In this document: positions 16,000 to 16,335 of the stretch, piece by piece
Position numbering within the stretch: the first letter of the stretch is position 1
How the letters are laid out: each line of letters begins with the position of its first letter
Origin: Escherichia coli
GTDB taxonomy: Bacteria; Pseudomonadota; Gammaproteobacteria; Enterobacterales; Enterobacteriaceae
Assembly: GCF_013315695.1 (NCBI RefSeq)
Contig: NZ_CP054353.1
Strand: one strand, 5' to 3'
Length of the DNA: 64,000 bases
Translations under genes and position numbers: made by a program
The notes under the pieces: generated by a model
What the model was told of the DNA's origin: nothing
What the model saw: only the letters and a program-made list of their open reading frames with translations
The model's database searches: none

Positions 16000-16335
16000 G
16001 CCTGATGCGACGCTGACGCGTCTTATCAGGCCTACGAGTCCGCACCTGTTTTTATGCGTGTGTCCGTTTGTAGGCCGGATAAGGCGTTTACGCCGCATCC
16101 GGCTATCGGTGCACAACGCCTGATGCGACGCTGACGCGTCTTATCAGGCCTACGGGTCCGCGCCTGTTTTTATGGGTGTGCCCGTTTGTAGGCCGGATAA
16201 GGGTTTACGCCGCATCCGGCTATCGGTGCACAACGCCTGATGCGACGCTGACGCGTCTTATCAGGCCTACGAGTTCGCACATATTTTTATGTTTGTGCCC
16301 GTATGCAGGCTGCATCCGGCGTCTGGCACCCGGTT
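16000..16335. repeat. BIME cluster: three tandem ~118-bp units each carrying paired REP palindromes
   Basis: Units begin at 16000, 16118 and 16235 with GCCTGATGCGACGCTGACGCGTCTTATCAGGCCTAC ... GTAGGCCGGATAAGGCGTTTACGCCGCATCCGGC. Confidence 0.8.

Follow-up and report, generated by a model that had tools for sequence, protein, structure and literature searches.

REP and BIME elements in the intergenic gaps of the Flag-2 lateral-flagella cluster of Escherichia coli

REP and BIME elements, the variation of their tandem number between strains and the role of their hairpins in 3′ untranslated regions belong to the textbook biology of E. coli, and their uneven distribution is likewise known. A REP is an imperfect palindrome of approximately 30-37 bp, with a GTAG/CTAC tetranucleotide at the stem foot, found outside genes and in high copy number. 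The REPs of malE-malF and of other operons are the classical mRNA-stabilising elements, being intercistronic and downstream of a stop codon in a polycistron. BIME-2 is also bound by DNA gyrase, and a short S linker with s, l or r motifs at its flanks is a further mark of it. The RNA naRNA4 is processed to a discrete form with two hairpins and binds HU.

A total of 584 REPs were counted in K-12, and two kinds of BIME are distinguished: BIME-2, composed of Y and Z2 in a variable number of tandem copies, and BIME-1, composed of Z1 and Y with a long L linker and present in single copy (PMC3333891). Tandem BIME copy number differs between strains, and a mismatch or bulge in the REP stem is required for the binding of TnpA-REP (PMC3333891). 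The K-12 element REP325 is a six-unit Y/Z2 array located between yjdM and yjdN, and naRNA4 is one unit of this array, naRNA1-6 (PMC4550694). REP325 was reported to act both as a partly Rho-dependent terminator and as a stabiliser of the upstream mRNA; in tandem gene pairs separated by REPs, expression is biased towards the upstream gene with wide context dependence, and half-lives are not uniformly changed (preprint 10.64898/2026.03.23.713779).

The array between flgJ and flgK compared with described BIMEs

The window, which is the whole stretch of 64,000 nucleotides of E. coli DNA analysed here (NZ_CP054353.1), begins with a Flag-2 lateral-flagella cluster. Gene names were taken from the RefSeq annotation of E. 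coli AF3 (NZ_OZ547117.1), which is 100% identical to the window over the 14 kb compared. In this annotation the cluster extends from window position 1 (fliG) to lafU at 28619 and is followed by dinB-yafNOP. REPs were located by an anchor scan for a 10-nt head and a 10-nt tail, and the features found are listed in Table 1.

Table 1. Positions of REPs, BIMEs and associated features in the Flag-2 part of the window.
Feature	Position	Strand	Remarks
flgD-flgE, BIME-1-like pair	10875-10971	+	Z1(+) 10875-10903; 33-bp L-like linker 10904-10936; Y(-) 10937-10971
flgF-flgG, single Y REP	12966-13000	-	RNA stem begins 12 nt past flgF stop
flgG-flgH, single Z2-like REP variant	13831-13867	+	GTCGGA/TCCGAC arms; 9 nt past flgG stop
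flgJ-flgK, BIME-2-type array	16000-16323	+	flgJ stop 15983, flgK start 16404
Array Z2 no. 1	16000-16035	+	head/tail anchor scan
Array spacer no. 1	16036-16069		34 bp
Array Y no. 1	16070-16103	-	head/tail anchor scan
Array linker no. 1	16104-16117		14 bp
Array Z2 no. 2	16118-16153	+	followed by spacer
Array Y no. 2	16187-16220	-	1-bp deletion
Array linker no. 2	16221-16234		14 bp
Array Z2 no. 3	16235-16270	+	followed by spacer
Array half-Y	16303-16323		decayed, internally deleted remnant
CTTAAGAA-N13-CGCCGCTTTTAA motif, conserved	16343-16375	+	between array and flgK; candidate LafS (sigma-28-type) promoter for flgKL
lafW-lafZ, single REP	19969-20006	-	Y arms, Z2-like interior; 15 nt past lafZ stop
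Post-lafA, single Y REP	22276-22310	+	10 nt past lafA stop; degenerate CTAC tail
Intrinsic-terminator-like hairpin with T-rich run, not a REP	22309-22346	+	directly past lafA REP

In the flgJ-flgK gap, Tandem Repeats Finder detected a repeat at 16000-16310 with a period of 117, 2.6 copies, 92% matches and a score of 538, and a repeat search gave three in-register copies at spacings of 118 and 117 bp. The unit of 117-118 bp consists of a Z2 REP, a 33-34-bp spacer, an inverted Y REP and a 14-bp linker. All three Z2 elements are identical and so are both linkers; the units differ mostly in their spacers, apart from the 1-bp deletion in the second Y. The preliminary description had counted three tandem units of approximately 118 bp, of which two are indeed complete, whereas the third contains a decayed Y. 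Rfam naRNA4 (RF02564, gathering score 59.5) matched both Y-linker-Z2 cores, at 16073-16150 (87.9 bits) and at 16191-16267 (75.1 bits). Folded as RNA, the whole gap reached -185.9 kcal/mol (z = -6.3).

The elements alternate in inverse orientation, Z2+ Y- Z2+ Y- Z2+ (Y remnant), with a head-to-head linker of 14 bp and a tail-to-tail spacer of 33-34 bp (19 bp in strains 88COLEC and JJ1886), and they are present in multiple tandem copies (2.6) whose number varies among Escherichia strains and species (0, 1, 3 or 6 units). Judged from its sequence, this is a canonical BIME-2 array. It resembles REP325 in being a tandem array between two co-directional genes and in its alternation of inverted Y and Z2 in the order Y(-), linker, Z2(+), spacer relative to transcription, and the head-to-head linker of REP325 is only one nucleotide shorter (13 bp). 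The period of REP325 is shorter (100 bp) because its tail-to-tail spacer measures 17 bp. REP325 has six units, as compared with the 2.6 units and decayed last Y seen here, and the flgJ-flgK array is, unlike REP325, part of a strain-variable locus that is absent from K-12.

The single-copy element between flgD and flgE, with its Z1(+), 33-bp linker and Y(-), is alike to BIME-1 of the RIP type. In BIME-1 the L linker contains an IHF site; on the reverse strand of the linker seen here, ATTCAATACATTG agrees with the IHF consensus WATCAANNNNTTR at only 8 of the 9 specified positions, as compared by eye. The Flag-2 REPs are also alike to those of the malE-malF type in their intercistronic location past a stop codon in a polycistron. 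Inverted REP pairs and a single-copy, BIME-flanked rayT adjoining lfhA are features shared with the REPIN/RAYT system (REPtron); in contrast to that system, filled and empty Flag-2 sites differ by the replacement of a few bases and not by a clean insertion.

All 11 REPs of the window had 0-1 mismatches to the Y, Z1 and Z2 consensus across the 20 anchor positions and agreed with three REP sequences that PMC11208160 gives as queries. Together with the naRNA4 matches, this bears out their initial designation as REP/BIME elements. The stem-foot CTAC or GTAG was present in 10 of the 11, the exception being the lafA REP with its degenerate tail (CCACGA). Individual REP hairpins folded as RNA to approximately -21 kcal/mol, and each stem has an internal mismatch, e.g. 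((((((((.(((((....))))).)))))))).

Distribution, density and neighbouring transcription signals

REPs had been described in five further gaps, and the anchor scan detected them in all five (Table 1). Every REP site is extragenic. Five are at tandem junctions and one is between the convergent genes in the lafW and lafZ positions, and neither coding sequences nor the two gaps with divergent promoters contain any. The REP stems begin 9-16 nt past the stop codons, except towards lafW in the gap between the convergent genes. The same scan of the remaining approximately 52 kb of the window returned no convincing REP, with a single weak match at 49119 located within an ORF.

The density was scored for the 11.6 kb between the stop codon of flgD and the start codon of fliD, which contain six REP sites. 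The in-genome background, from 350 kb sampled in the same genome with the identical scanner, was 11 sites or 0.031 per kb, giving an expectation of 0.36; from the published 355 REP elements in the 4.64 Mb K-12 genome, 0.89 sites were expected (Poisson P = 3e-4, the comparison having been picked after the data were seen). A baseline per gap is fairer than one per kb. In K-12, 146 tandem gene pairs with positive spacing carry REPs and 2451 are free of them, which corresponds to 5.6% (preprint 10.64898/2026.03.23.713779). Compared with this figure, and again post hoc, REPs are present in five of the nine positive-length tandem gaps from flgB to fliD (binomial P = 6e-5) and in five of 23 such gaps over all of the Flag-2 part of the window (P = 0.008). 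The unusually high density noted in the preliminary description, six sites where 0.36-0.89 were expected in these post hoc comparisons, thus holds locally; the crowding of REPs in Flag-2 is real yet local.

All four tandem gaps of the flgB-flgL operon that measure at least 20 bp in REP-free relatives are occupied by REPs, and the junctions that overlap or measure at most 16 bp have none. In the Flag-1 flg operon of K-12, a single BIME, consisting of a REP pair (6087-6184 of the extract) in a 171-bp gap, was observed at flgF-flgG and none elsewhere in flgB-flgL.

The hairpin directly past the lafA REP has a 13-bp perfect stem, folds jointly with the REP to -52 kcal/mol (z = -5.9) and is conserved in 8/8 strains compared. 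Terminator-like sites in 9200-23000 were no more numerous than in shuffled sequence (20 vs 17.2), and in the flgJ-flgK array only a weak 6-pair terminator match was found, in one spacer (16152-16167).

The motif at 16343-16375 was kept across genera in an alignment of the flgJ-flgK gaps of 12 loci, its cross-genus form being CTTAAGAA-N13-CGCCGC, and a similar TTAAG-N15-TCGTTTTTA is located upstream of lafA. The sigma-28-like pattern TAAR-N15-GCCGNTW occurred once in the window, before flgK, and also in 41 of 100 shuffles, and is therefore not significant. It is cross-genus conservation that makes the motif a candidate promoter of flgKL. If it is a LafS promoter, the array would mark the 3′ end of a flgB-J unit and would not be located in mid-operon, and independent transcription of flgKL would make attenuation by the array matter less for flgK. 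The array had been placed inside the flagellar operon; it is located between flgJ and flgK as claimed, but upstream of this promoter-like motif.

Variation among Escherichia loci and the origin of the insertions

A query from the window matched 5425 of 5426 complete E. coli genomes, with a median of at least 30 places per genome, on account of its REPs. The flgI-flgK segment was present in 1275 of these genomes, and 60 carriers evenly spaced among the 1275 were examined for the flgJ-flgK span. In most of them the span was approximately 231-245 bp shorter than in the window, and the two such loci of which the sequence was inspected (JJ1886 and T2) have a single Z2-spacer-Y pair in this gap. The three-unit length of the window was found in 4/60 carriers, three units of 97 bp in 1/60 and an empty gap in 1/60. 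The three-unit allele is a minority allele.

Among eight E. coli loci, variation was observed at all six REP-bearing gaps: flgD-flgE (23-271 bp, 0-4 REPs), flgF-flgG (26-178 bp, 0-3 REPs), flgG-flgH (82-203 bp, 1 REP), flgJ-flgK (76-421 bp, 0-6 REPs), lafW-lafZ (54-303 bp, 1 REP) and lafA-fliD (204-409 bp, 0-4 REPs). The REP-free gaps of the same loci were invariant, with 81 bp at flgA-flgB and 485-487 bp at lafZ-lafA. Strain XJ6.1 has three empty junctions, flgD-flgE (23 bp), flgF-flgG (26 bp) and flgJ-flgK (76 bp), and flgD-flgE is also empty (23 bp) in strain 10159. Z142-1 and 88COLEC carry a BIME-1-like Y-L-Z1 past lafA. In three strains, one of which is d1-58, the flgG-flgH REP (window equivalent 13831-13867) is split by a segment of approximately 121 bp with a REP-like terminal palindrome of its own, GCCCGATGCG...CGCTTATCGTGCCTAC, around a long loop.

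Outside E. coli, the flgJ-flgK gap of Escherichia sp. MOD1-EC7003 contains six units (11 REPs in 794 bp) with the same 118-bp unit as in the window; the half-Y that closes this array is the same, base for base, as in E. coli Z142-1 and similar to the decayed Y of the window. The corresponding gap of E. whittamii is empty (85 bp). Loci of other genera were found by a species-level scan with LfgI, and the cross-species lengths of flgF-flgG were taken from top HSPs only, since rod-protein paralogs match. In Citrobacter, Phytobacter, Enterobacter, Leminorella and Rahnella the gaps measured 14-39 bp (flgD-flgE), 12-30 bp (flgF-flgG), 50-102 bp (flgG-flgH) and 63-100 bp (flgJ-flgK), and these loci contained 0-1 E. 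coli-type REPs. The comparison with orthologous loci, which the preliminary description had proposed, therefore separates genera with short gaps and 0-1 REPs from the REP-rich Escherichia lineages, among which E. whittamii has an empty flgJ-flgK gap. Short REP-poor gaps in other genera and empty alleles within Escherichia together argue that the REP-free state is ancestral. On the evidence of these alignments, REPs entered the Flag-2 gaps within Escherichia, and the array acts as a variable-number repeat.

Two contigs assigned to Pseudocitrobacter vendiensis and P. faecalis (L017, L019) encode an LfgI 98-99% identical to that of E. coli and contain E. coli-type REPs, six of them in the flgD-flgE gap of L017. 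This points to a locus transferred recently, or else to assemblies that are contaminated or wrongly labelled.

Small-scale variation other than copy number was also observed at REP sites. A full IS621, a bridge-RNA element of the IS110 family, is inserted in strain d1-58 (approximately 7240-8600 of the extracted locus) at ...ATCAGGCCT followed directly by the element, in the Z2 tail of the flgJ-flgK BIME, and in strain 10159, 88 bp of the left end of IS621 remain at the same point. The natural target of IS621 is the REP tail ATCAGGCCTAC (PMC11208160), and the location in the flgJ-flgK Z2 REP fits this known target. Furthermore, a 249-bp segment (window 19719-19968) is present in AF3 and 88COLEC but lacking in six other strains, and its right-hand boundary falls exactly at the GTAGG foot of the lafW-lafZ REP. 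The segment contains a 47-aa remnant ORF and is in 88COLEC partly annotated as a partial helix-turn-helix protein. A partial match in strain T2 that ended at the first REP had appeared to be a REP breakpoint, and was found to result from an insertion of ISVsa5 in the 5′ end of flgK. REP sites thus mark copy-number change, the 249-bp indel and IS621 insertion.

Function of the elements and loss of the cluster

The history and role of the elements may be depicted as follows. Very probably, these are canonical REP/BIME elements inserted specifically in Escherichia into permissive Flag-2 gaps, where they later expanded, contracted and decayed, with protection of upstream mRNA and partial attenuation as their most likely effect. 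Within the genus, REPs would have spread into permissive gaps of the lfg/laf operons, both intercistronic and 3′, and replication slippage, unequal recombination, gene conversion and TnpA-REP/RayT are candidate drivers of the later expansion, contraction and decay. Once transcribed, a REP would fold into a stable hairpin of approximately -21 kcal/mol. In analogy to REP325 of yjdMN, such hairpins most likely protect the upstream message from 3′-to-5′ decay and, partly by way of Rho, attenuate read-through to some degree. The net bias would be towards the upstream gene, and the variable unit number could give rise to differences in expression from strain to strain. The differential stabilisation of mRNA segments that was initially proposed is, on this analogy, plausible. 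Flag-2 was reported to be non-functional in strain 042 (PMC6993521) and some of the loci examined have frameshifts or internal stops (T2), so that a regulatory effect of the REPs may be immaterial.

It is unlikely that the REPs are positively selected regulators of flagellar-part stoichiometry and that their density is adaptive rather than tolerated. The REPs would in that case separate the low-copy FlgD, FlgF and FlgJ from high-copy products of one polycistron, in agreement with the full occupancy (4/4) of the flgB-flgL tandem gaps of at least 20 bp and with the location at flgF-flgG of the only BIME in the paralogous Flag-1 operon of K-12. Several REP stems also begin 9-16 nt past a stop codon, a distance at which a REP reportedly lowers upstream translation, as is said to have been found by Liang, Rudd and Deutscher in 2015. 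However, every occupied tandem gap except flgG-flgH is empty or differently filled somewhere among the eight E. coli strains, REPs are missing from these gaps in other genera that share the gene order, anywhere from 0 to 6 units are present at flgJ-flgK and some of the loci contain pseudogenes. Selection for REP effects is doubtful because alleles come and go, other genera do without them and some of the loci have decayed to pseudogenes.

The gene rayT (yafM), encoding a REP-associated tyrosine transposase and present in single copy, was located directly beside lfhA at the edge of Flag-2, at 4314-4811 of the AF3 extract, approximately 10.2 kb upstream of window position 1, and at 3638-4135 of the K-12 extract. 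BIMEs are found to either side of it, and a further BIME is present in the divergent lfiM-lafK gap (AF3 extract 11339-11416). If rayT (TnpA-REP) acted in cis or nearby and made Flag-2 a preferred local sink for new BIMEs, this would explain why the flgB-flgL gaps of at least 20 bp are all colonised in Escherichia and empty in other genera; we consider this very improbable. A broad effect of proximity to rayT received no support, with 0-1 doubtful REP in the 50 kb upstream, on the other side of rayT, and none in the 35 kb downstream of lafU.

Slim indeed are the prospects of an action of the array at the level of DNA or chromosome, either as a gyrase or HU/naRNA4 site structuring the nucleoid or as a supercoiling buffer between transcription units. 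The Y-linker-Z2 unit is shared with REP325, the naRNA4 score is above threshold and HU/naRNA4-dependent condensation was reported by Qian et al. (PMC4550694), but alleles with 0 to 6 units, including empty ones, speak against a required structural role.

The REP sites had also been proposed as recombination hotspots related to the degeneration of the locus in other strains. In K-12, lfhA′ and ′lafU abut, the strain having retained the 3′ portion of lfhA as well as lafU from 27848 of the window on. The alignments overlap at the junction by 6 bp, a GTTGAT microhomology, and both ends are inside coding sequences, as in the published description of a deletion within the lfhA and lafU reading frames (PMC6993521). 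No REP was found at this junction, the nearest ones being 1.7 kb away on one side and 5.5 kb on the other. With a 501-bp spanning query the K-12-type junction was contiguous in 4086 of the 5426 complete genomes, and approximately 1275 retain the whole locus; other partial forms are rare, and those sampled end inside flgE or motA. Since the junction is inside coding sequences and far from REPs, the REPs do not account for the disappearance of the cluster, and the proposed link with degeneration fails the check that the preliminary description itself had set. Although nowhere in Flag-2 does length vary more than in the REP gaps, the 249-bp indel is located exactly at a REP and IS621 or a remnant of its left end is present in the flgJ-flgK Z2 REP of two strains, REP-driven deletion of Flag-2 in K-12-like strains is, given one identical junction in so many genomes, so improbable that it may be dismissed.

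The Flag-2 REPs are ordinary members of a long-known family, of which variable tandem number and IS targeting have already been described. No paper mentioning REPs in Flag-2 was found in a search that did not extend to the original Flag-2 paper (Ren et al. 2005). Their wider importance is little and their value modest and local. Alleles of the lfg/laf operons that are empty or have one or several units, with 0 to 6 at a single site, form a compact natural series that may be used to measure the effect of REP dose on read-through and decay. In addition, the insertions are dated to the Escherichia lineage, the frequent loss of Flag-2 can no longer be attributed to REPs, and the flgJ-flgK array is recognised as a natural IS621 target site.

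Several other features were observed in the window. Within the cluster, the fliK-like hook-length control gene contains a 30-bp tandem repeat at 24854-24950 (3.1 copies, 89% matches). At 40784-46000, a gene for a tyrosine integrase comes after a tRNA annotated as tRNA-Thr, and Rfam matched isrK (44921-44998) and C4 antisense RNA (45061-45148) in this region, which has the appearance of an integrated P4/P1-like element. Two direct repeats, 100% identical over at least 300 bp, are found at 53623-53922 and 57126-57425, at a spacing of 3503 bp. Both overlap a minus-strand ORF of 167 aa, the same in each, and probably represent two IS copies on either side of a segment. An Rfam IS009 match (193 bits) is located at the right end, at 63177-63377 on the minus strand. 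Finally, an rtcB-family gene and prfH (window 31144-32894) are intact in AF3, and are pseudogenes (ykfJ, prfH) in K-12 (extract 9468-10001).
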